Positions 19,248 to 63,371 of a stretch of DNA of 64,000 nucleotides are shown here, one piece after another; position 1 is the stretch's first letter, and each line of letters starts with the position of its first letter. Below the pieces are notes generated by a model that had not been told where the DNA came from, ran no database searches, and saw only the letters and a program-made list of their open reading frames with translations. Both the position numbers and the translations under genes were made by a program. Source of the stretch: Eledone cirrhosa (Eukaryota); contig OZ024740.1 of assembly GCA_964016885.1 (NCBI GenBank), positions 150,846,001-150,910,000 on the forward strand, in the 5' to 3' direction.

Positions 19248-19828
19248 AGTCACATTTAGGGTCGACTTGTCAATCTTCTGGCTGTTTTGTAACAACCTTA
19301 TTATTTCTATGTGTGTTTAACTGTTGAATTAATTTCATTTGATTATTTTAACAGGGAAATAATCTATATAGATATATACTAGCAGAATGGCTCGGCTTTG
19401 CTCGGGATTCTAAACATAGATTGGTATGTTTATCCCCCCTTTCTGAAACAGTAGAGAGAAGTACGGAATACCTCGGACTTGCAACCGTCGAATAGCAGAT
19501 TCCACTGACGATTCGTTTGCCCGCCTTGTTCTTTTTCTTGCCGCTTTCGCAGTATTTCGGCCAATGGAGTATCTCTTCCTTCGAGGCCTGACCTAAAAGC
19601 AGGACGAAGTAGACTAAGACTAACTGGTAGAGTAAGGAGTAAACTCGTCAGTGATGCATATGATTTCCGTTGACTATGCAATTGCTGGCCTTGTGCCAAA
19701 AGTAGAGGGACTTTTTGGGGTTGCATATCGGCAGTAACAATGACGATAAGCCGTCTGTGCTTTCGTGAAATAAATACGTTTGTTTATATTTTATTTTTTG
19801 TATGCAAAAATATCTGTACACGAATATA

Positions 19829-20014: not shown

Positions 20015-21161
20015 AATTCCATATATGGTAAAAGTTATTGTCACAAGGATTAGTCAAAAGTTTGTTGTTGAGACACATAATTCTATCATGGCAATTTGTG
20101 GAGGGAAGGGGTAGCTGAACTTGCCAGTAGAAGAAAGAGGGAGAGGGAGTGGGGGAAACCCAATCGTGCGTTGATAGTGCCAACTACAGCAGAATCCTAA
20201 GGATAAGAGGTCAAGAGAAGTATACTAGGGAAGGGGAGGGGGAGGAAGTCGAAACAATAAGTAAAACAATATAGAAAAATACCGAGAATGTTAAAAAAAA
20301 CAATTAAATGTAAAAAAAACAATTTCTGGTTACTATAACCTAAGGACAGCTATCAAGTCTCTCACTGGTACTGCTAGACTAAAGAAAGGTTTACTAGGTG
20401 GGACGGAATTATAATGAGGCCCTTTTAAGATGTATAAGTAATCAATCGAGTATATCTTACGGTAACGGGTCAACAAGTGGGGGGCCAAAATACTAAAGAA
20501 ACTACCACGAAATAATAATTCAGAGTCCCGAGACCAATACGAAATAAAGGTTTCTACCCCAGGCACAAGGCCACCAACCACCCAGTGCAAAAAAAAATAA
20601 ACTAATACGAAATAATAATTCAGAATCCCGAAAAAGAATACTAACACTATCTCTAAGGGTGCCGCCACGATACAAAAATTCTAGTGCAAACTACATAAAT
20701 GCTCGTACGAAGTATATGAAAAATTCGATACGGAAAATTAATTCAGAATCCCCCCCCCCCCCCCCCCCCAAAAAAAAATACTGATATACGAGAACTTAAA
20801 GCAAAGATGCCACTAAGAAATATAGAAGGCACGGAAACGGGGCAGCCATCGGATAAGAAGGCAAATATCCGGGGTCTAACACATCTGCTATAAAAAGCGG
20901 AGTCGGCCAATTCTATCATAGAATAGGGGAAGGGGGTGGGGGTACTGAGGCTACAAAAGACCGAGGGGCTGCCTCGGGTGGGTGAGAAAGTGGAAAGGAC
21001 GACGACAAAGAAAGAGGACTGGGGTGGAAGGACTAGGGAGGGGTGGGGGGAAGAAGGAAATATAGAGGAAGCGATAAAAAGATATAAAAGATCTTATGTC
21101 TACCTTTGCAAGCAGGGGTTACCCGATACAAAGTCGGCAAGTGGGGTGTTATAGCCCTAGT

Positions 21162-37506: not shown

Positions 37507-37754
37507 GAAAAAGGAAAAGAATGACCTCATTTGTAGTCCTAAACAATTTAATTTTATAATGTTACAATTTTACAATTTTGTTTTGTAGATCTAGTAAGTT
37601 CTTTGTTAATTTCGGCGGTAAGTTTTTTTTAAAGATTCCTGGTTAACTTTCGGGGAGAACTTTCTCGCATTTCTGGCAATTGGCAATCTGATCTAAAGTT
37701 TCACCCACATCTCTTATATATAGAGAAACACATCACAACACAACTTTAGATCAG

Positions 37755-37895
37755 AATCGTCAGAACGTCGGATAGAATGCTTTGCGGTATTCGTTCCGGC
37801 TCTCAGCTCGCTGAGTTCAAACCCCACCGAAGTCAATTTTACCTTTCATTCTTTCGATGTCGATATGAAAGTACTAGTCTAGTACTGGGGTTGAT
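37755..37895 (+). mobile_element. tRNA/CORE-type SINE, partial
   Basis: gagttcaaacccc B box and ctttcattctttcgatgtcgat core, same family as 55645. Confidence 0.7.
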
Positions 37896-40585: not shown

Positions 40586-40587
<2 letters not shown>

Positions 40588-40655
<68 letters not shown>

Positions 40656-40658
40656 GCC

Positions 40659-40717
<59 letters not shown>
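40588..40717. repeat. (ACT)n microsatellite at the end of the LINE train
   Basis: Seen directly in the sequence. Confidence 0.95.
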
Positions 40718-40719
<2 letters not shown>

Positions 40720-40721
40720 TT

Positions 40722-43700
40722 AATAATGATTTCATTTATTGGCCACAAGGGCCGACATATAGGGGACAACACAATAGACAGGGACAGTGGGGGTTTACAT
40801 AGAGATCGAGTAAGTATAAATAACAAAAAACAAAATAACAATAAAATACAACAATGAAAGTTCCCCAATAAGAGGGATCACCACCCAGGGTTGTCTCAAG
40901 CACCCCACCAGTCCTGAGCCACCCGACGCTCCTAGGGCACCCGGGAAGGGCACTCCTCTCCTTCTCGAATTCACCAGCCTACAGGCGCATGATCAGAGTA
41001 GGCCCACTCACGCGGGCCATTCTCGCCACATTCACCCACCTTTCAGTAAATGTACTGGGGGGCAGCACTTCTCTCTCCACCCTCACCTTCCTTTCCAAGT
41101 GAAACTTGAAGAAGTTGATGAGGGATTGGCCGAAGAGAAAAGTGTCTGTCTTCAGTCCTTTCAACCTGGCCCACCATGCAACCTCTTTCGCTACTGCCAC
41201 CAGGCAGAGGAAAATTGCCTGCCCTTCCTGACCAAAAGAAGGCGGCGGGTCAATCTTCACTATGGACTCGGACGATAGCCGGATCCGTTCTACACGCGAC
41301 AATAGCTGTTCGACATAACCCCACAAGTCAGCAATGCACGGACACTGGACGAGTGCGTGCAGAACGGTTTCGTCGCTCTGCGCGCATCTCGGGCAGGTTC
41401 GTCTGACAGCACTTCCGTGCCTGTAGAGTTTATCCCGAACCGGCAGCGCCCCCCGGTAGCACTGCCAAGCGAGGGATTTCTGGAAGTTATCCATCGTCCC
41501 CGGCTCGAAAGTCCTCCGGAACATACTGGTCAGTTCTACTTCGTTGACGCCCAGAGCCTCTCCTAGTACGTCATCGCACTTGCCCTCCACTAATCCTCTA
41601 TAGAAATCTTGAGTGGAAGTTCCACTGATCGCATTGCCCACCTTGCAGAGTGCAGTGAGCGCCTGGCAACATTCCAGATGCCAGTCGCCCAGTCTCGGTC
41701 TCTTCTTGACCCAGGACTGCAGCTCAGTCAAAGAGATGAGCTGCGGAAAGGCCCGTCTAACAAACGGCGACCACACCTGTTCACCGTTTAGGCAAAATAT
41801 CTGGAGATGTCGCAGCCTCAGCGCATGTCTGCGCATCATTAGCCACGGCATGCCCAGCCCTCCACGAAGAGGGTGCTGGCAGCAGATGGACCGCCTCACC
41901 AACGGGACCCGTCCCCTCCACAAAAATTTGAAAAGGAGCCGTTCCAAATTGGCGAGGCGTGGACGGGGGCAAGGCACGACGGTCAGGCGGTAGTAGATGA
42001 CGGACCCGATGTACGCGTTCGCCACCTCCGCCCGCCCTTTCAGTGATAGCTTTCTCTCAGCCCATTTCTGGGTGAGGTTGGCTATCCTGCTCGTCACCTC
42101 GTCCCAATTCTTATCCACCTGGAGGTCTGGTCCGAACCAAACCCCGAGCAACTTTACCGGTCCGTCTGTCCAGCGCCCAACGACGCTGTTGGACGGCATG
42201 GACTTGCCTCTCCAGGTGCCGAGCTGCAAGCCCACCGACTTTTCCGGGTTAAGTTTTGCTCCCGTCAACTTTTCATATTCCTCCAAATGGGTGCGGATCA
42301 CCTCGATTTCCGAGGTGTCCGACACCATCACGGTGATGTCGTCCGCATAAGCGGACGCAGCCTTTCTACGTCCCGGTTCGAGCGGGATGCCCTGCAACAA
42401 CTCCAGCTTCCGCAGTAGAGGCTCAAGAGTCAATACGTACAGAAGTGAGGAGAGAGGGCACCCTTGACGGACCGATCGAGAGATCTGAAACGGTTCCGAG
42501 AGGTGGCCATTGATTTTGACCACCGAGCAGATGCCGCTGTACATTGCAGCGATCCAGCTTCTGAAGACGGGGCCGAAGCCAGCCGCCTCGAGGACAGCCT
42601 CCAAGTACCGATGGTCGACCCTATCGAATGCTTTCGATTGATCTAAATTGATCAGAGCCCCACCGAAGCCAGGTTTGCACCCAACCCTCTCTATGATGTA
42701 TCGCATGAGGTGGAGGTTGTCGTGTATGGACCTGGTCGGGATTGAGCAAGTTTGCGCCTCCCCAACCAAATCTTTGACGACAAGCGCCAACCTTTTCGCT
42801 AACACCTTGGCCAAAATCTTAAACTCTGTGTTGAGCAGGGTTATGGGCCTGAAATTATCTAGTGTGTCCCTCTTGTTCTCGTCTTTCCTTATCAGCGTCA
42901 CTACGCCACGGCTCACAGAACTGGGAATGCTCCCGTTCTGCTGCCAGTTGCAGTAGAGCGCTTCGAGGAGATCGGAGAACAAGTCTGGCATATTTACGTA
43001 AAGCTCGTAGGGCAGACCATCCAAACCGGGTGACTTGCGACTCGAGCAGCCGACAAGGGCGTCCTGAATTTCGACTGATGTTATCGGCTCTTCGCAGCGC
43101 TCAGCGTCGGCCGTCGAGAGGCGTGGCAAGCCGTCGAGGTAGGGACTGAAGTCCGCCGCCGTCTCCGACTCACCCATCCTCCCGAACAATCGAGCAAAGT
43201 GCTGGCGAAAGGCCTTACACATCTGCTTGGAATCGCTCAGTTCGTGTCCATCTCGATCCGTCAAAGACCGAATTGTGGTTTTATTTCCACGCTGCGTCTC
43301 TGCAAAGCGAGCCCATCGGGCAGCTTTGGTTCCCTCGTTCCTCAGAGCACGCGCCTTAGCTCTGACAATGCAACCTTCGTGTTTCGCATTGAAGAAATGG
43401 TCTAGTGCCATTCTCGCCGCTAGCACGTCTGTTGCAATGCCACTACAAATAGCCTCGTCTAACTTAGCTATCAGCCCCTCCTCCTTTCTATTTTTCTCTA
43501 TTGCTACTTCTTTGCTAAATCCTATCGAGGTTGCTCTAATCTCTCTTTTGAGTGCCCCCCACCACCTGTTGTTGACAACCCCCCCTGTCAACTTTTGCTT
43601 AACTAAGTTGTTGACCCGGTCCCTGTAAGCTTTACGTGCCGGAAACGACATGTTTAGCTTCCAGTAGCTAGGTCCTAACCTACGTGTCTTATCTAGGTCG

Positions 43701-44017
43701 ACCATACAGATCACAAGCTTGTGATCTGAATAGGCAACCGTTTTAAAATGTGGACATCCTACACTATTTCTATCTCTTTTCCTAATGAAAATCCTATCTA
43801 TGTACGATCTAGATGACCCTATGCGATTGGTCCAGGTCCATACTGGCGCATTAGGGAAATCTAGTCGGTACCTGTCAGACAGTTGAAACTGGCTGATCAG
43901 GTACTTGAGGCTTTTGCACCCCCCGCTCCTATCAGATACTCCCACACAATCCCAGCGTGCTTCTAAGATGCCATTCCAATCCCCTATTAACAGTAAAGGG
44001 CGAGACGTAAGCAGAAA
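40722..44017 (-). mobile_element. Tx1/L1-clade LINE copy A (family 1), 5'-truncated, young
   Basis: Uninterrupted ORF2, 3'UTR, AATAAA and ATT tail. TSD ctactactttt(aataat) at 40711 and 44018. Confidence 0.92.
40979..43945 (-). CDS. LINE ORF2: partial APE endonuclease, reverse transcriptase and CCHC (N-terminally truncated)
   Basis: YIDRIF/SDHK, KSPGLDGL, RPITLLN, DQSKAFDRV, VRQGCPLS, AYADD, CPRC-x8-H-x4-C. The frame stays open up to the truncation at ~44017. Confidence 0.93.
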   Translation of the reverse strand: MGVSDRSGGCKSLKYLISQFQLSDRYRLDFPNAPVWTWTNRIGSSRSYIDRIFIRKRDRNSVGCPHFKTVAYSDHKLVICMVDLDKTRRLGPSYWKLNMSFPARKAYRDRVNNLVKQKLTGGVVNNRWWGALKREIRATSIGFSKEVAIEKNRKEEGLIAKLDEAICSGIATDVLAARMALDHFFNAKHEGCIVRAKARALRNEGTKAARWARFAETQRGNKTTIRSLTDRDGHELSDSKQMCKAFRQHFARLFGRMGESETAADFSPYLDGLPRLSTADAERCEEPITSVEIQDALVGCSSRKSPGLDGLPYELYVNMPDLFSDLLEALYCNWQQNGSIPSSVSRGVVTLIRKDENKRDTLDNFRPITLLNTEFKILAKVLAKRLALVVKDLVGEAQTCSIPTRSIHDNLHLMRYIIERVGCKPGFGGALINLDQSKAFDRVDHRYLEAVLEAAGFGPVFRSWIAAMYSGICSVVKINGHLSEPFQISRSVRQGCPLSSLLYVLTLEPLLRKLELLQGIPLEPGRRKAASAYADDITVMVSDTSEIEVIRTHLEEYEKLTGAKLNPEKSVGLQLGTWRGKSMPSNSVVGRWTDGPVKLLGVWFGPDLQVDKNWDEVTSRIANLTQKWAERKLSLKGRAEVANAYIGSVIYYRLTVVPCPRPRLANLERLLFKFLWRGRVPLVRRSICCQHPLRGGLGMPWLMMRRHALRLRHLQIFCLNGEQVWSPFVRRAFPQLISLTELQSWVKKRPRLGDWHLECCQALTALCKVGNAISGTSTQDFYRGLVEGKCDDVLGEALGVNEVELTSMFRRTFEPGTMDNFQKSLAWQCYRGALPVRDKLYRHGSAVRRTCPRCAQSDETVLHALVQCPCIADLWGYVEQLLSRVERIRLSSESIVKIDPPPSFGQEGQAIFLCLVAVAKEVAWWARLKGLKTDTFLFGQSLINFFKFHLERKVRVEREVLPPSTFTERWVNVARMARVSGPTLIMRL

Positions 44018-44049
44018 CTACTACTTTTAATAATAATAATAATAATAAT

Positions 44050-47000
44050 GATTTCTTTATTAACCACAAGGGTTTACATAAAGTAAACATTAAGGACAGT
44101 ACAGGACAATACAGGACGGTACAAATTGGCATTTCTGCGTGTAAAAAAAACAAGAAACAGAGGATGTAATAATAGAACAATAAAAAATTCCCCAATAGGG
44201 GGGAGACTTACGAGGGACATTGGTGGAGAAAGCCTATTAAAAAGCCACAGTGACCCTGACCACCAGGGCAAGTACCCTCTCCCAGTTTTCCACCTTTAAT
44301 TTACAGACACATACTCAGAGTAGGTCCATTCACTCGGGCCATTCTTGCCTCTCTCATCTATCTTTCAACAAAATGCTGGGAGGAGAGCACTTCCCTCTCT
44401 ACCCTGATTTTCCTTTTCAAATGAAATTTGAAAAAGTTAATCAGGGCATCACCGAAGAGGTAAGTGCTCGTCTTCAGCCCTTTCAAACGTGTCCACCATA
44501 CTATCTCTTTCGCCTTGGCGACCAAACAGATAAAAACTGCCTGCCCTTCCCGGCTAAAGGAAGAGGGCGGGGCAATCCTCACGATGGACTCAGCTGATAG
44601 CTGGATCCGTCTCACACGCGACAGCAGGTGTTCGACATAAACCCACAAGTCAGCAATGCTCAGACACTGGACGAGTGCGTGCAAGACGGTTTCGTCGCCC
44701 TGCGCGCATCTCGGACATGCCCGGTTGACGGCACCTCCATGCCTGTAGAGTTTATCCCGAAATGGCAAAGCTCCTCGGTAGCACTGCCAGGCCAGGGATT
44801 TCTGGAAGTTGTCCATAGGCCCCGGCCCGAAAGTTTTTCCGAAGAGATTGGCTAGTTGATTTTCGTCGACGCCTAGAGTTTCCCCAAGGAAGTCATCGCT
44901 CTTCCCCTCCACTAATCCCCTATAGAACGCCAAGGTGGAGTTTCCACCGATCACATTGCCCGATTGGTCAAGGGCTGTGAGCGCCTGAATACATTCCAGT
45001 CTCCAAGCGCTCCCCCTCGGTCTTCGCTTGACCCAGGACTGCAGCTCCGTCAAGGAGACGAGCTGGGGAAAGACGTGTCCAGCAAACGGAGACCACACCT
45101 GATCACCGTCGAGGAAAAGGTGGAGATGTCGTAGCTTGAGCGCGTGTCTGCGCATCATCAGCCACGGCAGGTGTAGACAGCAGATGGACCGCCTGACCAT
45201 CGGAGCGCGTCCCTTCCACAAAAAGCGAAAGAGCAAACCCTCCAGCGCAGACATGCGGGGCTTAGGACAAGGTACGACGGTCAGGCGGTAGTAGGTGACG
45301 GACGCGATATACGCGTTAGCCACCTCCGCTCGACCTTTCAGGGATAGCTTCCTCTCGGCCCATTTCTGGGTGAGAGAAGCCACCCTGCTCGTCACCTCGT
45401 CCCAGTTTTTGTCCGTCTGGAGGTCCGGACCGAACCAGACCCCTAGCAATTTAACTGGTCCGTCCGTCCAGCGCCCGACGACGCTGTTGGACGGAATGGA
45501 CCTGCTTCTCCAGGTGCCGAGCTGCAGGCCCACTGACTTTTCCTGGTTGATCATTGCTCCTGTCACCGCTTCGTATTCTCTTAGTGTAGTGCCGATCGCC
45601 TCGATGTGTTTGGCGTTCGACACCACTACGGTGACATCGTCGGCATATGCTGACACGGATCTTCCGCATCCTAGTTCGCGCGGGACCCCCCCCCCCCTTC
45701 AACGTCTCCAGTTTGTGCAGTAATGGCTCGAGAGTCAATACGTACAAGAGGGACGAGAAGGGACATCCTTGGCGGACCGAGCGCATGATGTTGAACGGTT
45801 CCGAAATGTGACCGTTCACTCTCACCATAGAGCAGATGTCGCTGTGCATTGCAGCGATCCAGCCTCTGAAGACGGGCCCAAAGCCAGCCGCCCTCAGGAC
45901 TGCCGCTAGGTAACGATGGTCGACCCTATCGAAAGCTTTCGACTGATCTAAATTGACCAAGGACCCACCCGTGCCAGGTTCCCTAGCTACCCTCTCTACG
46001 ATGTATCGCATGAGGTGGAAGTTGTCGTGGATGGATCTGTCGGGAATGGCGCATGTCTGCGCCTCTCCCACCAGACCACCAACGACAAGCGCCAACCTCT
46101 TTGCTAGCACCTTGGCCAAAATCTTGAACTCTGTGTTTAGCAGAGTTATGGGCCTAAAATTATCTGTTATCCTTTCGGATCCTTTCTCAGCAGCACCACA
46201 GCTCCTCGGCTCACAGAGCTGGGATTTCTACCGTTCTGTTGCCAGTTGCAGTAGACGTCCGCCAAGAGGCCTCCGAACAAGTCTGGCATCTGTACGTAAA
46301 GTTCATAGGGAAGACCATCCAAACCAGGCGATTTACCCCTTGTGCAGCTAGTCATTGCCTCCCGTACTTCAGCGGCTGTTATCGGCTTTTCGCAACACTC
46401 CGCCTCAGTGGTCGAGAGCCGCGGCAGTCCGTCGAGGTAGACACTAAAGTCCATCCCTCGATCCGGCCCGCCGCTGCCCCCGAACAACTGAGCGAAGTGT
46501 CGCTGAAAAGCTGCACACATTTGTCCGGGATCGAGTAGCATGCGCCCGTCGTGGTCCACCAAAGACCGGATCGTGGCTTTGTTGCCACGACGCGCCTCCG
46601 CTACTTGGGCCCATTGAACGGCTTTCGTCCCCTCGTGTCTGATAGCACGCATCCTAGCTCTGACAACGCAAGTACGTCGGTCGCGATGCCTTTGCTAAGC
46701 GCCTTGTCTAATTTTCTAACTAATTCTCCTTCTGCTCTATTTTTCTCTATTGCTAAAGCCTTACTAAACCTAATGGACTCTATTCTAATTGCTCTTTTCA
46801 GAGCAAACCACCACTTGTTGTTGACGATGGCCCCCGTCAACGCCCGCTTAACTAGTTCGCTAATCCGGTCTCTGTAGGCCTTGCGCGCTGGTAAGGACGC
46901 GTTTAGCTTTCAGTAGCCGAGTCCTTGTCTATGAAGCCTATCTTATTCAAGTACACAGATCACGAATTTGTGGTCCGTGTAGCTGACTATCTTGAATTGT

Positions 47001-49635
47001 GGACAGCCTATGCTAGACCTATCTATTTTTCTACAAAATACTCTATCTAGATATGATCTGGATGACCCTATGCGATTTGTCCAAGTCCACATTGGCACAT
47101 TCGGGAAATCCAATCGGTACCCGTCAGACAGTTCAAAACGCCTGAGCAGGTTGGTGAGGCTCTTGCACCCTCCTCCCCTATCCGCTAATCCCACACAGTC
47201 CCAGCGTGCATCTAAGATCCCGTTCCAGTCGTCCACTAACACTAAAGAGCGGGAAGTTCCAAGAAAGGTCTCCAGACGCCGGAAGAAATCAGGCCGCCCT
47301 GCTCCAGTCGGGGGATAGACGGCCAGTACCCTGAAAGCTTGCTCGTCTCCGCTGGTCACGTCTAGCACCACCAACTTACCTTCTGGGTCCAGGAAGATGG
47401 CCCGTATGGCGAGATCCAAACCTCTCCGAAAAAGCACAGCAACTCCCCCTCCCCCTGATCCCGGACGGCTGGGAGATGCGTACAAATCGTAGCCGCCGAT
47501 CTATGTTTAGTGACCTGAGGTCGTTGAGCAGGTGGCTCTGCTTCCATGATGACCCCAGGCCACGCGCATTTATGCTGCCTATTCTGAGTGAGGTCATGTT
47601 GAAATGGAGTGGAAAAGATGGGAAAGAACACTTACCTTACTTCTCGTAGAGGAAGTATGGTTTGTCCATCCTTTTCACTGCTTGTGGCCTCCTCCGGAAG
47701 GATGTCCTTATAAATCCTCCTGGAGAGTGTTTGTCGGAAGTCTCCGATGTCTTTGGGGAATTTTTGTTTTAGTGTCGTGTACGTTTTCTGTGTGATGCGA
47801 GTGATTTGTATGTGTGGAGGTGGTGTGAACTTTTGGGTTGTTGTGTAGTCTTTTTCTGTGATGCTCGTGTTGTGTTGCATGTAGTGTAATAATTGGTTGT
47901 TGTTCAAATTTAATGCTGTGTAGTGTGTATCGTTTTGGTTGTTTTGTTTTGTTTGCGTTTGTTGTGGGTTCGTTTCTGTTACGCTTTTTGGTGACTTTTG
48001 TGGTGTTGGTGAGGGTGGTGTTGGGGTTAATGATGGTGATGGTGTTGGTGTTTGTGGTGATGGGGTTGGTGATGCTGGTGTGGATGGTGGCATATCTGTC
48101 TCAACTTTCTTGTTCGATAATTTATTTGTTTCCCTCTGTATTTTGTTTTTTGAGGGGGAAGGAAGAGAACTTTTTCTTTTTTGGTTTCTTTTTTTTTTCT
48201 TTTTTTCTGATACCGTTTCCCACTCGTCGTCACAATCTGTCTCCAGTTGCGATAGGCCGGGGAGTGGAAAATCCTCCACAGGCGTTGGTTTTGGTTGTGG
48301 CGTGGTGGATGGTGTAGGAGCTGGTGCTAGTTCTGGGGCGTTTGGTGGTGGTGGTGTTGGTTTTGCTACTGTTGCTGGGGTTGTTGCTGTTATAGTTGCT
48401 TCTGTTGTTGCTGCTACAGTTGTTGCTGCCATCTCTGCTACTGGTGGTGTTGATGGTTGTGTCACTGGGGTGGGTAGGAGAGGTGGCCTCAACCTTTTAG
48501 CCTGAGGGCAGAAAGCCCTTAGGTGGGTTCCTTCACCACAAACGACACACCTAGGTCTTCTGCCCTCGACAATTACCGTGAGGTGGCTGCCGTCAGTGAG
48601 GTCTATTACCTCTGGGATCTCCTCAATGCTTTTATGGTCCGCTTGGATCAGGAGCTCCATCCCAGATCCGGACCAGTTCTCCTGCTTTTCTTTTGCTATT
48701 TCTATTATTTTGGTGTTGGCCTCGATGCCGGCGAGGACGGCAGCCATTAGCCAGGGAATTTCGATGGCCGGTGGAACGTGGGTCACCCTGATCTTCACAA
48801 GTCTCTGGCCACAATAGCTTGGGATGAGTGTGAAGTCGTCACTTCTTAATGGGACCATGGAGTGTTCTCTGGTCTCCTGTGGTGTTTCAAAGGACACGTC
48901 CACGGTTCCATACTTCTGACCCTGTACCCATCTTTCTTTACCATTCCTTTGGCTTCGTCTAATTCTTCCTGAGTAACCTACATCGCTTCGTACGTTTTTG
49001 CTACTCTGGCAAAATTCAGGGTAGTTTTCTTAATTTCATTGTTGCTGTTGTTATTATCGTTATTTTTGCTATTGTTAATTTTAGTTTCAGTTGTGGTGGT
49101 GGTGGCGTCAGTGGTGTTCGGTGTGGAAGAGTTCATTTTGGTTGAATTCATTTCGATATCATGAGTTAATTTATTTTTTTCTTTTGTTTCTGTTGTCGCT
49201 GTGATGGGGGTGGGGGTGGGGGTTGTCGCGGTGGAGGTGGTGGCGGCTTTAACACCTGCAGTCATTGGTAATGGCGGGAAATGAACGTCTGCTTGAGACA
49301 AATTAAAAATATTGCTACTGCTTACAATTCCAGTGTTGGTAAACGTAGCAATGTTTACAATGGTGGTGTCGGTGTGAGGTGTTGGATTGTGAGGAAGGAG
49401 TGAATCTGAGTCATCCATTATTTTTCAAAGAAAAAATTTTTTGTTTGATAATTATAAAAAGTTTAAATTTTGGGCTCAAGGCCCCAATATTTTTGAGTGT
49501 CCTTTTCAGAAATCAATGTATGTGCACTTATATATAGTTAACAATAAAAATATTCCATAAATGGCAATTTTAAATAACTGAAAATAACAAACCTTTGTGG
49601 AGATCACGATGATACGATTTACTACGTAGGTCGCC
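44050..49635 (-). mobile_element. Tx1/L1-clade LINE copy B (family 2), both ends present, disrupted
   Basis: ORF1 fragments 47632-49418 and ORF2 fragments ~44300-47597 with frameshifts and deletions. Highly similar to copy C, with the same 5' start GGCGACCTACGTAG. Confidence 0.92.
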
Positions 49636-49690
<55 letters not shown>

Positions 49691-49933
49691 TTTTCTTTAT
49701 TAACCACAAGGGTTTACATAAAGTAGACATTAAGGACAGTACAGGACAATACAGGACGGTACAAATGGGCATTTCTGCGTGTAAAAAAAAACAGAGGATG
49801 AAATAAAATAACAAAGAAAAATTCCCCAATAGGGGGGAGACTTCCGAGGGACATTTGTGGAGAAAGCCCATTAAAGACCACAGTGGCCCTGACCACCAGG
49901 GCAAGTACCCTCTCCCAGTTTTCCACCTTTAAT

Positions 49934-52900
49934 TTACAGACACATACTCAGAGAAGGCCCATTCATTCGGGCCATACTTGCTTCTCTCACCCATCTTTCA
50001 ACAAAATGCTGAGAGGAGAGCACTTCCCTCTCTACCCTGATTTTCCTTTTCAGATGAAATTTGAAAAAGTTAATCAGGGCATCACCGAAGAGGTAAGTGC
50101 TCGTCTTCAGCCCTTTCAAACGTGTCCACCATACTATCTCTTTCGCCTTGGCCACCAGACAGATAAAAACTGCCTTCCCTTCCCGGCTAAAGGAAGGGGG
50201 CGGGGCAATCCTCACGATGGACTCAGCTGATCGCCGGATCCGTCCTACACGTGACAGCAGGTGTTCGACATAAACCCACAAGTCAGCAATGCTCGGACAC
50301 TGGACGAGTGCGTGCAGGACGGTTTCGTCGCCCTGCGCGCATCTCGGACATGCCCGACTGACGGCACCTCCATGCCTGTAGAGTTTATCCCGAACTGACA
50401 AAGCTCCTCGGTAGCACTGCCAGGCCAGGGATTTCTGGAAGTTGTCCATAGGCCCCGGCCCGAAAGTGCTTCCGAAGAGATTGGCTAGTTGATTTTCGTC
50501 GACGCCTAGAGTTTCTCCAAGTACGTCGTCGCTCTTCCCCTCCACTAATCCCCTATAGAACGCCAAGGTGGAGTTTCCACCGATCACATTGCCCGATTGA
50601 TCGAGGGCTGTGAGCGCCTGAAGACATTCCAGTCTCCAAGCGCTCCCTTTCGGTCTTCGCTTGACCCAGGACTGCAGCTCCGTCAAGGAGACGAGCTGGG
50701 GAAAAACGTGTCTAGCAAACGGCGACCACACCTGATCACCGTCGAGGAAGAGGTGGAGATGTCGTAGCTTGAGCGCGTGTCTGCGCATCATCAGCCACGG
50801 CATGCCCATCCCTCCACGTAGCGGGTGTTGACAGCAGATGGACCCCCTGACCATCGGAGCGCGTCCCTTTCACAAGAAGCGAAAGAGCAAACGCTCCAGC
50901 GCAGTCAGGCGGGGCTTAGGACAAGGTACGACGGTCAGGCGGTAGTAGATGACGGATGCGATGTAAGCATTCGCCACCTCCGCTCGACCTTTCAGGGATA
51001 GCTTCCTCTCGGCCCATTTCTGGGTGAGAGAAGCCACCCTGCTCGTCACCTCGTCCCAGTTTTTGTCCGTCTGGAGGTCTGGACCGAACCAGACCCCTAG
51101 CAATTTAACCGGTCCGTCCGTCCAGCGCCCGACGACGCTGTTGGACGGCATGGACCTGCCTCTCCAGGTGCCGAGCTGCAGGCCCACTGACTTTTCCTGG
51201 TTGATCATCGCTCCTGTCACCGCTTCGTATTCTCTTAGTGTAGTGCCGATCGCCTCGATGTGTTTGGCGTTCGACACCACTACGGTGACATCGTCGGCAT
51301 ATGCTGACACGGATCTTCCGCATCCTAGTTCGCGCGGGACCCCCCTCAACGTCTCCAGTTTGTGCAGTAATGGCTCGAGAGTCAATACGTACAATAGGGA
51401 CGAGAGGGGACATCCTTGGTGGACCGAACGCATGATGTTGAACGGTTCCGAAAGGTGACCGTTCACTCTTACTACAGAGCAGATGTCGCTGTGCATGGCA
51501 GCGATCCAGCCTCTGAAGACAGGCCCAAAGCCAGCCGCCCTCAGGACTGCCGCTAGGTAACGATGGTCGACCCTATCGAAGGCTTTCCACTGATCTAAAT
51601 TGATCAAAGACCCACCCGTGCCAGGTTCCCTAGCTACCCTCTCTACGATGTATCGCATGAGGTGGAGGTTGTCGTGGATGGATCTGTCGGGAATGGCGCA
51701 TGTCTGTGCCTCTCCCACCAGACCACCAACGACAAGCGCCAACCTATTTGCTAGCACCTTGGCCAAAATCTTGAACTCTGTGTTTAGCAGAGTTATGGGC
51801 CTAAAATTATCTGTTATCCCCCTTGTTCGGATACTTTCTCCGCAGCGCCACCGCTCCTCGGCTCACAGAGCTGGGAATTCTCCCGTTCTGTTGCCAGTTG
51901 CAGTAGACGTCCGCCAAGAGTCCTCCAAACAAGTTTGGCATTTGTACGTAAAGTTCATAGGGCAGACCATCCAAACCAGGCGATTTACCCCTTGTGCAAC
52001 TAGTCATTGCATCCCGTACTTCAGCGGTTGTTATCGGCTTTTCGCAACACTCCGCCTCAGTGGCCGAAAGCCGCGGCAGTCCATCGAGGTAGACACTAAA
52101 GTCCATCCCTCGATCCGGCCCGCCACTGCCCCCGAACAGTTGAGCGAAGTGTCGCTGAAAAGCTTCACACATTTGCCCGGGATCGAGTAGCATGCGCCCG
52201 TCGTGGTCCACCAAAGACTGGATCGTGGCTTTGTTGCCACGACGCGCCTCCGCCACTCGGGCCCATTGAACAGCTTTTGTCCCCTCGTGTCTGAGAGCCC
52301 GCACCCTAGCTCTGACAACGCAGCCTTCGTGCTTTGCATTGAAGAATTGGTCAAGGGCCAATTTCGCCGCAAGTACGTCGGTCGCGATGCCTTTCCTAAG
52401 CGCCTCATCTAATTTTCTAACTAATTCTCCCTCTGCTCTATTTTTCTCTATTGCTAAAGTCTTACTAAACCTAATGGACTCTATTCTAATTGCTCTTTTC
52501 AGAGCAAACCACCACTTGTTGTTGACGATGGCCCCCGTCAACGCCCGCTTAACTAGTTCGCTAATCCGGTCTCTGCAGGCCTTGCGCGCTGGTAAGGACG
52601 CGTTTAGCTTCCAGTAGCCGGGTCCTCGTCTATGAAGCCTATCTAAGTCAAGCACACAGATCACGAATTTGTGGTCCGTGTAGCTGACTATCTTGAATTG
52701 TGGACAGCCTATGCTAAACCTATCTATTTCCCTACAAAATACTCTATCTAGATATGATCTGGATGACCCTATGCGATTTGTCCAAGTCCACATTGGTACA
52801 TTCGGGAAATCCATTCGGTACCTGTCAGACAGTTCAAAACGTCTGAGCAGGTTGGTGAGACTCTTGCACCCTCCTTCCCTATCCATTAATCCCACACAAT

Positions 52901-53351
52901 CCCAGCGTGCATCTAAGATTCCGTTCCAGTCGCCCACTAACACTAAAGAGCGGGACATTCCAAGAAAGGTCTCCAGACGCCGGAAGAAATCAGGCCGCCC
53001 TGCTCCTGTCGGGGCATAGACGGCCACTAACCTGAAAGCTTGCCCGTCTCCGCTGGTCACGTCCAGCACCACCAACTTACCTTCTGGGTCCAGGAAGATG
53101 GCCCGTATGGCAAGATCCAAACCTCTCCGAAAAAGCACAGCAACTCCTCCCCCCGATCCCGGACGGCTGGGTGATGCGTACACATCGTAGCCGCCGAAGA
53201 TCGGTGCGAAAGCCTGTGCTTCGGAGATTCTGGTCTCGCTGATGGCCACTACATCTATGTTTAGTGACCTGAGGTCGTTGAGCAGGTGGCCCTGCTTCCA
53301 TGACGACCCCAAGCCACGCGCATTTATGCTGCCTATTCTGAGTGAGGTCAT
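49934..53351 (-). pseudogene. ORF2 (APE-RT-CCHC) of copy C, split into three ORFs
   Basis: IGSINARG, SET, VYAP, GDWN, TDHK, AYADD and CPRC motifs distributed over 51807-53351, 50870-51766 and 49934-50854. Confidence 0.92.
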
Positions 53352-53385
53352 GTTGAAAAGGAGTGGAAAAGATGGGAAAGAACAC

Positions 53386-55388
53386 TTACCTTACTTCTCG
53401 TAGAGGAAGGACGATTTTTCCATCCTTTTCACTGCTTGTGGCCTCCTCAGGAAGGATGTCCTTATAAATCCTCCTGGAGAGTGCTTGTCGGAAGTCTCCG
53501 ATGTCTTTGGGGAATTTTTGTTTTAGTGTCATGTACGTTTTCTGTGTGATGCGAGTGATTTGTATGTGTGGAGGTGGTGTGAATTTTGGGGTTGTTGTGT
53601 AGTCTTTTTCTGTGATGCTGGTGTTGTGTTGGATGTAGTGTAATAATTGCTTGTTGTTCAAATTTAATGCTGTGTAGTGTGTATCGTTTTGGTTGTTTTG
53701 TTTTGTTTGCGTTTGTTGTGGGTTTGTTTCTGTTTCGCATTTTGGTGACTTTTGTGGTGTAGGTGATGGTGGTGTTGGGGTTAATGATGGTGATGGTGTT
53801 GGTGTTTGGGTTGATGGGGTCGGTGATGCTGGTGTGGATGGTGGCATATCTGTCCTAACTTTTTTGTTTCTTAATTTATTTGTTTCCCTCTGTATTTTGT
53901 TTTTGGAGGGGGAAGGAAGAGAATTTTTTCTTTTTTGGTTTCTTTTTTTTTTCCGGATATCGTTTCCCACTCCTCGTCGTCACAATCTGTCTCCAGTTGC
54001 GATAGGCCGGGGAGTGGAAAATCCTCCACAGCCGTTAGTTTTGGTTGTGGTGTGGTGGATGGTGTAGGCGCTGGTGGTAGTTCTGAAGCGTTGGGTGGTG
54101 GTGGTGTTGGTTTTGCTGGTGGTGGTAGTGGTGTTGGTTTTGCTACTGTTGCTGGGGTTGTTGCTGTTATAGTTGCTTCTGTTGTTGCTGCTACAGTTGT
54201 TGCTGCCATCTCTGCTACTGGTGGTGTTGATGGTTGTGTCACTGGGGTGGGTAGGAGAGGTGGCCTCAACCTTTTAGCCTGAGGGCAGAAAGCCCTTAGG
54301 TGGGTTCCTTCACCACAAACGACACACCTAGGTCTTCTGCCCTCGACAATTACCGTGAGGTGGCTGCCGTCAGTGAGGTCTATTACCTCTGGGATCTCCT
54401 CAATGCTTTTTTGGTCCGCTTGGATCAGGAGCTCCATCCCAGATCCGGACCAGTTTTCCTGCTTTTCTTTTGCTATTGCTATTATTTTCGTGTTGGCTTC
54501 GATGCCGGCGAGGACAGCCGCTATTAGCCAGGGAATTTCGATGGCCGGTGGAACATGGGTCACCCTGATCTTTACGAGTCTCTGGCCACAATAGCTTGGG
54601 ACGAGTGTGAAGTCGTCACTTTTTAATGGGGCCATGGAGTGTTCTCTAGCCTCCTCTGGTGTTTCCAAGAACACATCCACGGCTCCATACTTTTGCCCAC
54701 GTCTGATGTGGGTTTTTCTTGCCCACACATGTCCCAAAGCTTTTTGGATTTGGGACTCGGATGCCCGTTCCACTCGGCGCGATTTTACATTTATTGTTCT
54801 ATACGACACGGTGCATAGGCGCCAATGCTCCATTTTATTAGGTGGGGGGGGGGGGGGGAGGCTGACCCTGTACCCATCTTTCTTTACCATTTGTTTGGCA
54901 TTTTCTAAATCCTCCTGAGTTACCGTGAATGCTTCGAACTGTTTTGCTACTATGGCGAAACTGAGGGTCGGTTTTATAATGTCATTGTTGTTGTTGTTGC
55001 TACCGTTATTTGTGTTAATATTAATTTTAGTTTCAGTTGTGGTGGTGGTGACGTCAGTCGTCTTTGGTGCGGAAGAGTCCATTTTGCTTGATTTCATTTC
55101 GACATCACGAGTTAATTTATTTTTGTCTTCTTTTTTTTCTGTTGTCGCGGTGGTGGTGGGGGTGGTGGTTGTTGCGGTGGTGGTGGTGGTGGTGGAGGCT
55201 TTAACACCTGCAGTCATTGGTAATGGCGGGAAATGAATGTCTGCCTGAGACAAATTTAAAATATTGCTAGTGCTTATATTTTTTTTCGTGTTGGCAAACG
55301 TAGTAACATTTACAATGGTGGTGTCGGTGTGAGGTGTTAATTTGTGAGGAAGGCTTTCAGCTGCTTCGTGCAGAGGTGAATTAGCCAT
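53386..55388 (-). pseudogene. ORF1 of copy C (gag-like zinc knuckle), frameshift near the poly-T at ~53945
   Basis: C-x2-C-x4-H-x4-C motif (CVVCGEGTHLRAFC) and Thr/Pro-rich linkers. Copy B is continuous across the frameshift. Likely ATG at 55388. Confidence 0.88.
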
Positions 55389-55596
55389 TTTTTTCAAAGA
55401 AATTTTTTTGATAATAATAAAAGTTTAAATTTTGGGCACAAGGCCCCAATCTTTTTGGGTGTCCTTTTCGGAAAACAATGTATGTGCGCTTATAAACAGT
55501 TAACAATAAAATTTTCCATAAATGACAATTTTTAACAAACGGAAATAACAAACCTTTGCGGAGCTCACGATGATACGATTTACTACGTAGGTCGCC

Positions 55597-55637
<41 letters not shown>

Positions 55638-55644
55638 TAAAAAT

Positions 55645-55837
55645 AATAATTGTTTCTACTTTTGGCACAAGGCCAGCAATTATATCAGTGTATTACTGGT
55701 ACTTTATTTTATCGACCCTGTATGGATGAAAGGCAAAGTTAACCTCGGCGGGATTTGAACTCAGACCATAAAGAGCCGTAACTCTTTGCTGCAAAGCATG
55801 GTGTCCGACCCTCTACCGATACTGCCAATCGACCGCC
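55645..55837 (-). mobile_element. Full-length tRNA/CORE-type SINE with 19-bp TSD
   Basis: A box tggcagtatcgg, B box gagttcaaatcc and ATT tail. TSD taaaaataaaaataataat at 55632 and 55840. Confidence 0.88.
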
Positions 55838-55854
55838 CTTAAAAATAAAAATAA

Positions 55855-56110
55855 TAATAATTGTTTATATTTTTAGTACAAGGCCAGCAATTATCCTAGT
55901 GTATTCTTCTTGTGACGCTAAACCCCGCCATTTACAGACTGCAAATTAACATTGATCACAAGCAGCAGAATTCAAAGAGCAAAGGTCAAGTCCAATCCAT
56001 AAATTGACATTGTCAAGCCATCGTTTTTGCTGCCGGCCTCTGCTTCTCTTACATTACATGAACTTTATTTTATCGACCCCGTAAGGATGAAAGGCAAAGT
56101 TAACCTCAGC
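55855..56110 (-). mobile_element. Partial SINE of the same family interrupted by an RTE 3' fragment (55904-56055)
   Basis: SINE tail and core segments flank an insert that translates to RSRGRQQKRWLDNV and ends in gaagaa. Confidence 0.7.
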
Positions 56111-56111
56111 A

Positions 56112-56790
56112 AATTGTTTCATTTATTGGCCACAAGGGCCGACATATAGAAGACAAAACACTAAACGGTGACAGTTGGATTTTTACATTAAAAAATCAAG
56201 CAATGAATATAAAAACAATAACAATCAACAAGAAAAATACATACAACAGAGGAGATAACCACCCGAGGGCGACTCAGGTACCACACTAATCATGAACCGC
56301 CCGACGCTTCATGAACCACGCCTCTCCTCCACAAATTAGTCAGCCTACAGGCGCATGCCCAGGGTAAGCACATTTACACAGGCCATTCTCGTTACATTAA
56401 CCTTTCAGCAAATGTACTGAGGAAGGGGTGGCAGCATTTCTCTCTCAACCCTCAACTTCCATTCCAAGTGGAACTTGAAAAACTGGATGACGGATCGGCC
56501 TGTAGATACTTGCTTTGTATTGAGGGGAGAAATCTCTCAAGTGGACCGTCTGCCCACAGATGGCAGCGAGGATTCTCCCCCCCCCCCCCAGCAGTGGTAT
56601 GGAGTTCCATTTCCCACGCCAAGCAAATGAAGTCTGGGATATCTTCAATCTTCTCTGGTTTGATGTGGAGGAGTAACACCCAGACCAGTTTTCCTCTCTG
56701 TTCTCTCTACCTCGACGTCCAGGCGGGTCAGCATCCACTAGATATCCAGCTGTGGTAGGATTGCTGTTATTCTGACCTTTATGGTATAAC
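56112..56790 (-). mobile_element. Internally deleted Tx1 copy D (ORF1 knuckle region fused to family-1 ORF2 end and 3'UTR)
   Basis: 56115-56490 aligns with 40730-41120. IEDIPDFICL..PRCHL resembles ORF1. Confidence 0.75.
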
Positions 56791-57763
56791 ATCTTTACTC
56801 ACACAGACACACACGCCCCCCTCCCAATATATATATATATATGTATAGAACATCTTATACAAAATAACTGAGGGGTAGTTCCCAATAAAGTAATCTAAAA
56901 TAAGAACACTCCACATGCATCTCTTTCTAGAAATATAGTCTAGTTGAGCAGTCTAAAGCTGGAACGCTTCACTAAGATCCCTTACTGAAGATTCAAGATC
57001 AAGAATATCTTATTGTCACAAGATTAACAACGACATATTAGCTGGGTCTTCTTGTTCTTTAGACAAATCAAAGGCAGCACAAACGTGACTGTCCCGTCTT
57101 CTTATGTACAGAGAACCCAAAAGTACATTAACTAATGCAACCTTCTCGATGACATTGTGTGTGTATTGTGTGTAAAGGAGATTGAAAATACTGTTTGTTA
57201 TTGATAGTAAGTCGACCAATCACATTCGTAGTTGTTAATATCTAACTTTAGGTCAACTTCGGTCGAGCGGTCCTATGATGAAAGATCTTAAATCGTGACC
57301 ATCTTGTAAACCCAGAACCACAATATCCAATATTTACTTTTCTAAGAGATAGAGTGAGATTTATCTGCTATATATAACAGGTTGAACAATCACTTAGAAA
57401 TATCATCGTGATGTGCTATGTATTTATTTAGCATTGATGATCTCGAGTGTAGGGAAATGGTGTTGTGTTGTGTCAGGATAAATATTTCTCAGAAGATATA
57501 TCGGCTTGAGGCAAAAAGTGTTCATGATACGACCAACGGTCCAATTTAAGGATCTCATATAGCATTTGCCAGTAGCATTTACACATATACTTGATATCAA
57601 TATAGAATATAGTTATGATTTTCTATGTGCCTATAAATATGTACCAAAATATCTTTGGATCAATAAGTCATTTAGACTAATTGTCACTATCTATCTATCT
57701 ATCTATCTATCTATTTATCTATCCATATATTGACTATATATATAACCACTAATAATCGTTATT

Positions 57764-57953
57764 AATAATTGTTTCTACTTTAGGCACAAGGCCAGCAATT
57801 ACCCAGTGCATTACTGGTACTTTATTTTATCGACCCCGTAAGGATCAAAGGCAGAGTCAACCTCGGCGGGATTTGAACTCAGATCGTAAAGGGACGTAAC
57901 TATGCTGGAAAGCAAGGCGTCCGACCCTCTACCGATACTGCCAATACACCGCC
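57764..57953 (-). mobile_element. Full-length SINE with 14-bp TSD
   Basis: Colinear with 55645-55837. TSD tcgttattaataat at 57756 and 57954. Confidence 0.88.
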
Positions 57954-58151
57954 TCGTTATTAATAATGGTGTAAGAATCCAGTATCGAGTGCTCAAACTG
58001 GTGTAGCACGTGTAAGTAACGTTGCACACCTAACAACTGTATATATATATATATATATATAATGGAAAAATTTGAACAGGAACAAAACAGAGAGGCAGTA
58101 CAACGAATGTTTATTAATTTCACGCTCTGGAGAGTGGGGTGTTGGTGGGGA

Positions 58152-58183
58152 ACGACTTTTCGGGCATAAGCCCTTCCTCAGGT
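58152..58183 (-). ncRNA. Minimal hammerhead in the 3' pLTR
   Basis: AC-CTGAGGA-agggc ttat gccc-GAAA-AG-TC-GT. Confidence 0.65.
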
Positions 58184-59700
58184 GAGAAGTATGTGGGAAC
58201 AGAGTTCAAAGGGTGTGTAGGGGAGTGGTGGAGAGACATATAGCGAAAGGAAACGGTGCGAATGGAATTAAAAAAAATAAAAATAAAAATAAATCATGAT
58301 CAAAATACAAAGAATGAAATAAAATTTAAATATAAAAGCATGATCAGAATAAACTGAAATTAAAAGGGGGGTAAAACAGGTGGTGGAAGGTTGTGGGGTG
58401 TGTAGGGGTGCTGGCGGGTGGAGTGGGGAGAGGGAAACGGGGTGTCCGAGCGGGGAGGGCTGAAGGTGGTGTGTGTGTGTAGGTGTACGTGTGTGTGTGT
58501 GTGTGTGTGTGTATGTGAAAGTAAGGGTTGGGGAAGAACGGGGTTGCATGTTCAGGAAGAGGTGTGTGTGTGTGTGGGGGGGGGGGTTGTAGGTCGGAGT
58601 GTCTGTGCGTGTGTGGATAGAGGGGTGGGGGGGAGAGGTATCAGGAGGCTGAGGGTGTAAATATGTGGTGGAAAGCACGTGTGTGTGGGGTTTAAGCGTG
58701 TTGTGGGTGTAGGTGGCGTGTGGAGAAAAAAAATTTTTTTGGGGTGTGTGTGTGGTTGAGTTATATAGGTGATTACGTAAGAGGATGGTTGAAAAGTTGG
58801 TAACATCCGATGATGTTTAGTGGATTCTGTGGTGGTCAAGTTCTACGTATGAGTATTCCATGAAGCGATGGTCGGAAGAGGAGAGATGTGGGGTGCGCGC
58901 GCAACAGGAAGTGGTCAAGCAGTGGGAGTGCTGTGTGTCTGTTTGTGCTGGGAGGTGGTCAGAGGGCTTAGCAGCAGTCGGTGGAATGGTAAAGGGGCGA
59001 GGATGGGTAGGTGTGAAAGTTGGAGAGAGGAGGGTGTGTGTGTGTGTATTAGTAGAGGTGTTAGTGGGATGAGTGAGTGTGGAGCGAGGGTGTGGGTGGA
59101 GAGGGGAGAGAAGGGTGTGTGTAGGTTTATGGAGGGAGTGTGGTGCACTGGTGTGTGTGTAGTTTGATGAAGGGGTGTTAGTGGGTGTTAGTATACGGGA
59201 GGTGGGGAGGGGTTGAATGCAGGTGTGAGTGGGGGTTAGTGGTGGTAGGGTGTGTAGAGTTGGTGGTGTACGAGGGTGTGTGGGTACGTGTGCGTGGGGT
59301 TGGGGGTGTTAGTGATGTTAGTTGCGTGTGGGGTGGGTGGTGTAAGTGGGTGCGTGTGTTCGTGTGCTTGGGGTCAGGGGGTGTTAGTGAGGTTAGTTGC
59401 AGGGTGGGGGGATGGAGGTGTGGGGGTGAGAGGTGTGGGGGTGAGGGTTAGTGGTTGTAGTAGGGTGTGTGTTTAGTGTGAGCGCGTGTATATATGTGCC
59501 GGTGGGTGTGTGCGTGTGACAAGGAGGGGGGAGGAGGAGAAGAAGGGAGGGATGTTAGTATGTTAGTTGGGGAAGGGTGGTCAGATGAGGGGTGGAGTGG
59601 AGGTGTTAGTATTGTTAGTTGTGGGGTGGGCGGTGAAAAGGAGGGGTGTGTTAGTGGTGTTAGTGGGGAATAAGTGTGGGGGGAGGGGGGCGGTCGAAGG

Positions 59701-62700: not shown

Positions 62701-62717
62701 AGGATCTCAGGCTGGGC
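59701..62717 (-). pseudogene. PLE RT and GIY-YIG ORF, frameshifted
   Basis: IVIKPADKGG, FYQQVTGVAMGTRMGPNYANLF, RYIDD, FLDI, CSRPRCNTCP, CTSSNQVY, YVGQTGRRLADRFTEH, PPGLN. Confidence 0.9.
59971..60290 (+). repeat. Inverted copy of 59401-59723 inside the GIY-YIG domain
   Basis: Near-identical reverse complement of ~320 bp. Confidence 0.92.
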
Positions 62718-63234
62718 ATGGTGGGCGTTGGGTGAAAGCAGGGGGATGGATGAGAAGGCAGGGGTGTGAAGCGGGGTGGAGTGAACGAAGGAGTGAGTGC
62801 GAAGGATAGGCAGAGACGGGGAAGGGAAAATGAAACAGAAAAACGTAGGGAGGGGGGAGTAAACACAGGAAAATTAAAGACAAAAAATCATAAAGGTAAA
62901 AACACAGGCAATCGTGAACAAAAAATCATAGAAATAAAATTGTAAGAACACAGGCAAGGAATCATATACGGAAATAAACAAGTACAGTAACAAAATCAAA
63001 CAGAGGTAATGCGTGGAAGGAAAGACCAAGTGTGGGAAGGTGTGTAAAGTTCGGAGAAAGGTCACGGCGGATTAGATCGGGGTTGAGCCGGTATTTAAGT
63101 TATGTTCCAAGGAATGGAAGCCGTGTGAGCGTGTATTATATATAATGGAAAAATTTGAACAGGAACAAAACAGAGAGGCAGTACAACGAATGTTTATTAA
63201 TTTCACGCTCTGGAGAGTGGGGTGTTGGTGGGGA

Positions 63235-63266
63235 ACGACGTTTCGGGCATAAGCCCTTCCTCAAGT
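63235..63266 (-). ncRNA. Minimal hammerhead in the 5' pLTR
   Basis: AC-TTGAGGA-agggc ttat gccc-GAAA-CG-TC-GT. Confidence 0.6.
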
Positions 63267-63371
63267 GAGAAGTGCGTGGGAACAGAGTTCAAAGGGTGTG
63301 TAGGGGAGTGGTGGAGAGACATATAGCGAAAGGAAACGGTGCGAATGAAATACAGTTGTTAGGTCCCTTTT

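Follow-up and report, generated by a model that had tools for sequence, protein, structure and literature searches.

A co-oriented stack of ATT-tailed LINEs and SINEs in an octopod genome and its relation to spacer-bearing sister arrays

Introduction

Insertions that preserve their target while generating a new one have been described for R1, jockey and P-element dimers (McGurk and Barbash, 10.1101/158386). The subject of the present analysis is a stretch of 64,000 nucleotides from Eledone cirrhosa (assembly GCA_964016885.1, contig OZ024740.1, positions 150,846,001 to 150,910,000; hereafter the window), in which long and short interspersed nuclear elements (LINEs and SINEs) stand in a single orientation, most of them joined by ATT repeats. 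As in the dimers, copies lie head-to-tail with one target copy between them and 5'-truncated members occur. Different is that the site in the window hosts several families together with a SINE, and that the tail of the elements itself adds targets.

Alu elements insert into the A-rich stretches of other Alu elements in sense orientation, with the tail pairing with the primer strand (Levy et al., PMC2836564). In both cases simple sequence borne by the element is the hotspot. However, the Alu system works with poly(A) and L1, and its hotspot is an internal linker, whereas the window combines (ATT)n with a Tx1-like LINE (PMC2836564). Kibi, Koshi and crocodilian Tx1 elements target (TC)n, (TTC)n and (TTCC)n, with tandem SINEU-3 copies around the target-site duplication (TSD), while Keno targets U2; a family counts as specific there when more than 20% of its copies are flanked by a microsatellite (PMC4494074). 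A Tx1-type protein, microsatellite flanks, a partner SINE and tandem copies around a TSD are common to these elements and the window, but their repeats are others and their specificity was measured family-wide (PMC4494074). Dong, which targets TAA repeats and is reported in a snail, shares its target and its occurrence in molluscs with the window (PMC3812793). It has been placed in the R4 group, and a list of recently active families in Octopus vulgaris includes both Dong-R4 and L1-Tx1 (PMC13282606).

In RTE LINEs and SINEs, base pairing of the tail repeat is proposed to determine where cutting or priming takes place, so that a new tail would bring a new site (PMC6007223); this system differs from the window in its clade and in a match of one or two bases, and arrays are not described in the part of that account used here. 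ZeppL of Chlamydomonas is likewise an L1-group LINE in big local clusters, but these span 51-320 kb and lie at centromeres (10.1101/2022.06.16.496473). Target preservation and multiplication as well as tail pairing are thus already published (10.1101/158386; PMC2836564; PMC4494074), and the stack in the window alone is instructive but expected under known rules. What is new are sister elements at 41% identity, which lie in arrays of as many as 12 copies, all in one orientation, with subfamily-specific spacers of 12-18 bp and no ATT tail. In the literature searched, neither ATT-tailed stacks of Tx1 elements in cephalopods nor such spacer arrays are described; subscription papers, Repbase reports and supplements may describe the families.

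Organization of the stack and its target-site duplications

The window is animal DNA rich in microsatellites, with about 36% GC outside the elements. On its minus strand, six element copies are arranged head-to-tail in the order LINE D, partial SINE, SINE, LINE C, LINE B and LINE A, followed by (AGT)n, with ATT stretches at five of the six junctions and ends. The order, the single orientation and the AAT junctions from the partial SINE onward are as described in an earlier note on this DNA.

LINE D (56111-56790, the 5' end being approximate) is followed by the 3' half of a SINE (55862-56110), whose two pieces (56053-56110 and 55862-55905) are split by a 147-bp LINE-like fragment (55906-56052). 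A 22-nt imperfect ATT tract leads to the full SINE of 187 bp (55651-55837), and an imperfect (ATT)n of about 54 nt (55597-55650) separates the latter from LINE C (49690-55596). Between C and LINE B (44050-49635) lies (ATT)18 (49636-49689), and (ATT)7 (44029-44049) stands between B and LINE A (40728-44016), whose own tail consists of two ATT units. The (AGT)n microsatellite downstream of the train has 44 units (40587-40718). Three of the four (AAT) tracts of at least 15 nt in the window sit in the array, a circular count because these tracts are the tails of the elements.

TSDs can be read directly for three copies. That of A (ATTATTAAAAGTAGTAGT; 3' copy 40710-40727, 5' copy 44017-44034) measures 18 bp at most, 12 bp of which are clear of the tail ambiguity, and its 5' copy is the end of the B tail plus 12 nt; the earlier note had read this duplication as 11-17 bp. 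The TSD of the SINE has 19 bp, as given in that note, with its 3' copy (55632-55650) within the imperfect (ATT)n after the SINE and its 5' copy (55840-55858) in the tail of the partial SINE. Since both TSDs copy the end of the upstream tail, A and the SINE represent two separate insertions into existing tails. A third TSD belongs to a lone SINE outside the array (57770-57953; 57756-57967 including TSDs), whose 14-bp duplication (57756-57769 and 57954-57967) has the AAT-type end that had been noted, ATTATT on the minus strand.

In all three cases the 5' copy of the TSD starts with ATTATT. Outside the array, such a hexamer in any ATT phase occupies 0.27% of positions, which we use as background. 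The lone SINE is the case independent of the array: its target was unique, non-repeat DNA carrying one ATTATT. The ATT start of the TSDs is non-random. A tail of 54 nt offers 17 ATTATT sites, compared with a background of 1.8 per kb. In a control with about 4,950 random position pairs, matches of at least 18 were seen in 4; these had a length of 25-40 nt and are probably simple repeats.

The stack has, we believe, probably grown by repeated target-primed insertion of Tx1-like LINEs and SINEs into earlier ATT tails, which would keep all copies co-oriented. From the TSDs and tails we infer where the nick would fall, how RNA and DNA would pair and in which order the copies came. The endonuclease would nick the AAT strand of an older tail, and the (AUU)n end of the incoming RNA would pair with the freed primer, followed by reverse transcription and a second nick 14-19 nt from the first. 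Pairing of RNA and primer would fix the orientation. With each event the TSD would retain the old target and the new tail would add further ones. Insertion probably depends on a short match to ATT, about 6 nt in length, and not on a long microsatellite, which would account for single insertions in unique DNA. Probably the partial SINE and its tail came first, the SINE, C and B then entered that tract, and A inserted at the end of the B tail. Template jumping may explain the junction of D, and later exchange the peculiarities of B and C. If this holds true, it accounts for the joint accumulation of LINE/SINE trains and AAT microsatellites in the genomes of octopods. In O. vulgaris, LINEs and SINEs make up 12.9% and 11.6% of the DNA, respectively, or about a quarter in all (PMC13282606).

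Coding capacity and relationships of the LINEs

Copy A is 5'-truncated inside the endonuclease, but its second open reading frame (ORF2) is open over 1012 aa (40979-44017) and comprises the end of the endonuclease, the reverse transcriptase (RT) and zf-RVT; at the nucleotide level, A is about 75% identical with B and C. C is a full-length member of a high-copy family with two ORFs. Its ORF1 (from 55388) contains a putative CCHC knuckle and is frameshifted in an A run near 53960; its ORF2 (53351-49934) has one stop and one frameshift. B has a full-length 5' end but is decayed, with three stops in ORF2 and deletions of 169, 56, 49 and 21 nt relative to C. D is an internally deleted relative in which a piece of ORF1 (about 56782-56520) is fused to the last 59 codons of ORF2, with an A-like 3' untranslated region.

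Pfam matches on ORF2 were Exo_endo_phos (APE endonuclease), RVT_1 and zf-RVT, which is the ORF2 layout of the Tx1/L1 group. ORF1 of C or B had no Pfam match; a CX2CX4HX4C pattern is visible by eye, the Atlas look-alikes of ORF1 are CCHC and ZCCHC3-type RNA-binding clusters (0.88-0.93), and ORF1 of a sister element (see below) matches zf-CCHC (E 3e-4). Over the ORF1 stop in both C and B lies a consensus-like splice donor, AGGTAAGT (53393-53384 and 47637-47628), and in both a pyrimidine run is found between it and the start codon of ORF2.

The best named homologues of the LINE proteins are from Argonauta hians (66%), Octopus bimaculoides and a cuttlefish. Searches for homologues returned no labelled Kibi or Koshi sequence. 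A scored 297-338 bits against more distant relatives sited in U2/U1 small nuclear RNA (snRNA) genes and 165 bits against human L1; the tree of these elements holds no named Tx1 reference. Judged by sequence, the LINEs in the window are Tx1-like, and their U2/U1-sited relatives are Keno-like by target. Dong/R4 elements have a single ORF and no N-terminal APE endonuclease. Two ORFs, the N-terminal APE domain and the Tx1-like grouping set the window LINEs apart from that group.

B and C are about 94% alike, with 322 differences over 5553 aligned positions and with private indels; divergence is 12-20% in the 5' 900 bp and about 5% beyond. In ORF2 (969 codons) the proportion of synonymous sites that differ (pS) is 0.087 and that of nonsynonymous sites (pN) 0.030, a ratio of 0.33-0.34 (p 1e-9) that persists when CpG codons are left out. 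In ORF1 the ratio is 0.84, near neutral, in the first part and 0.38 in the second. The purifying selection on ORF2 means that most differences between B and C arose in working lineages, and that the two are no plain duplication.

A tandem duplication by unequal exchange between ATT tracts, with the rest of the train put down to chance nesting in AT-rich, repeat-rich DNA, would fit the common 5' start of B and C, their shared frameshift and an identical tract of 283 bp, and copies in the sister arrays that are 0-0.9% apart are what unequal exchange would give. Yet the pN/pS of B and C is 0.33 on either side of the frameshift (p 4e-5 and 4e-6), their 5' 900 bp differ by 12-20%, and the starts of the TSDs are not random. 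We therefore regard this explanation as highly improbable; the segmental duplication that the earlier note had raised as an objection to its own claim is at least not a simple one.

The shared ORF2 frameshift lies just before the DNFRP motif (51812-51825 in C, near 46171 in B), and A and relatives are intact at this site. The identical tract (54127-54411) possibly stems from gene conversion or a mosaic source. Exchange between the neighbours B and C would explain both, and some later exchange is likely. Alternatively, the frameshift may be common to the whole B/C family, since contigs from public reads show no indel there among the 12 rows listed out of 14. A protein search gave no member of the B/C family ending at the frameshift, and both relatives covering the site are intact. 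The first ORF2 frame of C ends with AGA-TAA at the shift, which we take to resemble a stop-associated +1 recoding layout.

The common 3' end of LINEs and SINEs

All four LINEs and the SINEs carry a stem-loop with the loop CUUGU and a 4-bp stem 13 bases ahead of the A-rich end (minus strand; A 40741-40753, B 44062-44074, C 49702-49714, D 56128-56140, SINE 55663-55675, lone SINE 57782-57794). The stem pairs covary, with GGCC/GGCC in A and D, AACC/GGUU in B and C, and UGGC/GCCA in the SINE, to which the sister elements add AGGC/GCCU in 8 of 9 loci viewed. One stem pair is broken in the partial SINE and likewise in the lone SINE. LINEs and SINEs thus share a 3' end of about 30 nt, consisting of the loop with its compensatory stem, then the A-rich end and the ATT tail, as expected of a partner pair. 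Hence the SINE is presumably moved by the protein of this LINE family.

The SINE head contains what we take to be a B-box-like motif. For the full SINE, ARAGORN reported no tRNA and Rfam no match; over 38000-64000 Rfam gave only two chance mir-297 matches on a TA repeat. The 147-bp fragment within the partial SINE may represent the C-terminus of an RTE-type LINE, judging by a motif; in the one frame scanned, which is not that of the motif, no domain was matched. At 19680-19706, 20543-20589 and 37752-37878 there are older remnants of SINEs that share the 3' motif or the body but have no ATT tract, and fragments of the LINE family in opposite orientation lie at 15462-15518 and 18058-18153.

Further copies in public read contigs

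Contigs assembled from public reads were compared with 49675-58050 of the window in 4 of 24 listed runs. A and B lie outside this part, and ATT repeats were skipped, so the comparison holds no information on the flanks of the LINEs. Contigs of run X1 match D and its upstream flank with 0-2 differences, and one of them covers the internal join of D with one difference. The summed depth, which is not a copy number, was very high for C and the SINE compared with 9-20 for the flank.

Joints at which the 3' end of one SINE passes into the 5' end of another in the same orientation were found in at least 297 contigs of X1, at least 139 of X4 and at least 3 of X6. They account for 7 of the 15 joints listed, and the strand is kept in all 15 (7342 more joints exist beyond these). 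Co-oriented SINE pairs are thus frequent in the contigs of two organisms and count in favour of the interpretation in the earlier note. Past SINE 3' ends, (AAT)n is the plurality sequence; the share of ends that run into long (AAT)n is estimated at 13-16%, which is a lower bound, and most tails lead into other sequence. Stacking of SINEs is thus a common event, for which the SINE does not need a long microsatellite.

One joint of high depth in X1 connects the 3' end of an A/D-type LINE via ATTATT to the body of a SINE (55768 to 56117) and is perhaps an amplified composite. A metagenome scan yielded, among the matches listed, only distant relatives (25-40%) and no octopod copy with flanks. Searching for the LINE 3'-end pattern gave two chance matches in bacterial genome contigs and none in viral contigs.

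Evidence against the proposed tail insertion and alternative origins of the train

Several observations weigh against a growth by insertion into earlier tails. B and C have no readable TSD, both lying wholly inside (ATT)n; in such pure repeats a TSD cannot be read, and these two copies may stem from one template jump or from a duplication that diverged afterwards. Between D and the partial SINE there is only AATTT, with neither an ATT tract nor a TSD. The frameshift common to B and C is the loss of the same 2 nt in both, and an identity as long as their 283 bp arose in only 1 of 2000 permutations. Support for the stem-loop comes from covariation in few families, and folding of the 3' ends did not differ significantly from that of shuffled sequences (z 0.08 to -1.72). 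In the read contigs, the agreement of loose SINE ends with (AAT)n was 0.42 (1206 contigs, X1) and 0.40 (1470 contigs, X4), compared with 0.31 for random DNA; short-read contigs break at microsatellites, which makes this figure an underestimate. No contig of the four runs bridges an ATT junction within 49675-58050, and no empty site was found among the contig rows listed.

The missing bridges bear on whether the train is an artefact of an assembly that joined repeats through ATT tracts, microsatellites being weak points of assemblies. We find this scarcely credible: A and the SINE are each bordered on both sides by TSDs with unique parts, B and C differ by private indels and at the 322 positions given above, and the X1 contigs match D and its flank.

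The junction of D could be understood if part of the train arose in one event, the RT passing from one RNA to the next, from B to C and from the partial SINE to D. There D meets a 5'-truncated SINE and its upstream side yielded no TSD, only a match of 3 nt. Such concatemers are formed by L1 ORF2p in vitro (PMC10830420), and the joint between an A/D-type LINE end and a SINE in X1 would fit, as would B and C without TSDs of their own. But A and the SINE each have their own TSD, none encloses the whole train, and B is more decayed (three stops, four deletions of at least 21 nt) than C (one stop), suggesting different ages. Template jumping as the origin of part of the train thus seems quite improbable, and separate insertions into existing tails remain the reading that we prefer.

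Sister arrays without ATT tails

An alignment-based scan found relatives at 40-41% identity in a GTDB record labelled as a bacterial metagenome-assembled genome (MAG; G001). The 83 matches lie on 16 contigs (L083-L121, L129), on one strand per contig, and most have an open ORF2. These contigs are animal-like, with TA microsatellites and about 35% GC; the LINE arrays are host contamination of a bacterial genome record. They are known from assembled contigs alone, which may have been selected by binning. The family in the window and the sister elements form one clade with a support of 100/97 (36 of 38 rows, the pieces from B and C falling below the length filter).

The sister units measure 6.4-6.8 kb, and the longest array has 12 3' ends across 71 kb. 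Of 64 3' ends, 57 are followed by a co-oriented copy and 3 by flank, while 4 lie too near the end of the locus. None of the 64 has an ATT tail: the terminus consists of the same stem-loop, AATAAA and a spacer of 12-18 nt, which differs between subfamilies that are only 1-5% apart in ORF2. Copies inside one array are 0-0.9% apart among the units listed, and 5' truncation is seen in some units that follow an intact spacer. An ATT tail, to which the earlier note had ascribed the building of arrays, is not needed for them. Stacking looks like a trait of the clade, with ATT as one tail among several.

In the sister locus L107 the spacer borders the array on either side and also separates its copies, with 1-3 differences in 18, and thus resembles a TSD. 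One target copy between neighbours, as in R1-type arrays, is seen here as well as at A and the SINE in the window; contig 18, with no TSD at its array ends, does not follow this rule. Three other 5' ends have a flank with only partial similarity to the spacer. At least two different 3' flanks were seen for one spacer family, as expected if the RNA carries the spacer, but equally if loci exchange sequence.

The spacers bear on the question whether the endonuclease itself recognizes long (AAT)n, the tails mattering only as DNA targets. B and C are fully embedded in (ATT)n, four insertions went into one tract, the Tx1-like protein has target-specific relatives in U1/U2 snRNA genes, and the LINE copies may be stricter than the SINE. 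The lone SINE, however, used a single ATTATT in unique DNA, A went into the last two units of a tract, the SINE ends that run into long (AAT)n are estimated at 13-16% (the lower bound given above), and sister subfamilies with nearly the same ORF2 have unrelated spacers. Such strict targeting is, in our view, unlikely. The mechanism of the earlier note, in which (AAT)n targeting builds self-regenerating arrays, is partly supported: sequential insertion into tails is borne out by the TSDs of A and the SINE, strict targeting like that of Kibi and Koshi is not supported, with the lone SINE in non-repeat DNA and loose ends at 0.40-0.42 against 0.31, and what stands is right in kind, but of a known kind.

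A possible interpretation of the sister arrays, which we put forward only tentatively, is that the protein grips the CUUGU stem-loop and that the 12-18 nt past AAUAAA are an exchangeable RNA guide pairing with the nicked DNA. Each subfamily would then home to its own spacer and build intact arrays of tens of kb. A spacer would be acquired from whatever lies 3' of the source copy, and the octopod (AUU)n would be a guide turned microsatellite, shared by several LINEs and a SINE. Nearly identical sister proteins with different spacers provide a natural test of how far the RNA tail, and not the endonuclease, chooses the site, a point not settled in the parts of two accounts used here (PMC3812793, PMC6007223). 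For directed insertion, a LINE that is led to its target by a short RNA end would be of interest.

An snRNA or spliced-leader (SL) target of the sister arrays was rejected, with no Rfam RNA gene at four loci, and as to a link to telomeres, 118 kb of sister flanks contained one short telomere-like match. The flank of one sister array (L145, 16700-17100) contains a repeat of about 286 bp that has this 3' motif but no LINE body. A second MAG record (L123, L124, L130, L131) holds animal U1-U2-5S clusters invaded by several Tx1-like LINEs, some of which have an end precisely where U1 begins, whereas others end within U2.

Other repeats in the window

A decayed Penelope-like element (58054-63351) has direct repeats of 215 bp (97.7%) and an inverted repeat of 322 bp (97.8%). 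It gave a weak RVT_1 match (E 0.004) and carries a motif that we take to be GIY-YIG-like. Two further pairs of inverted repeats, 6247-6417/7626-7797 (96%) and 32560-32691/38604-38734 (88%), are possibly the ends of DNA transposons.

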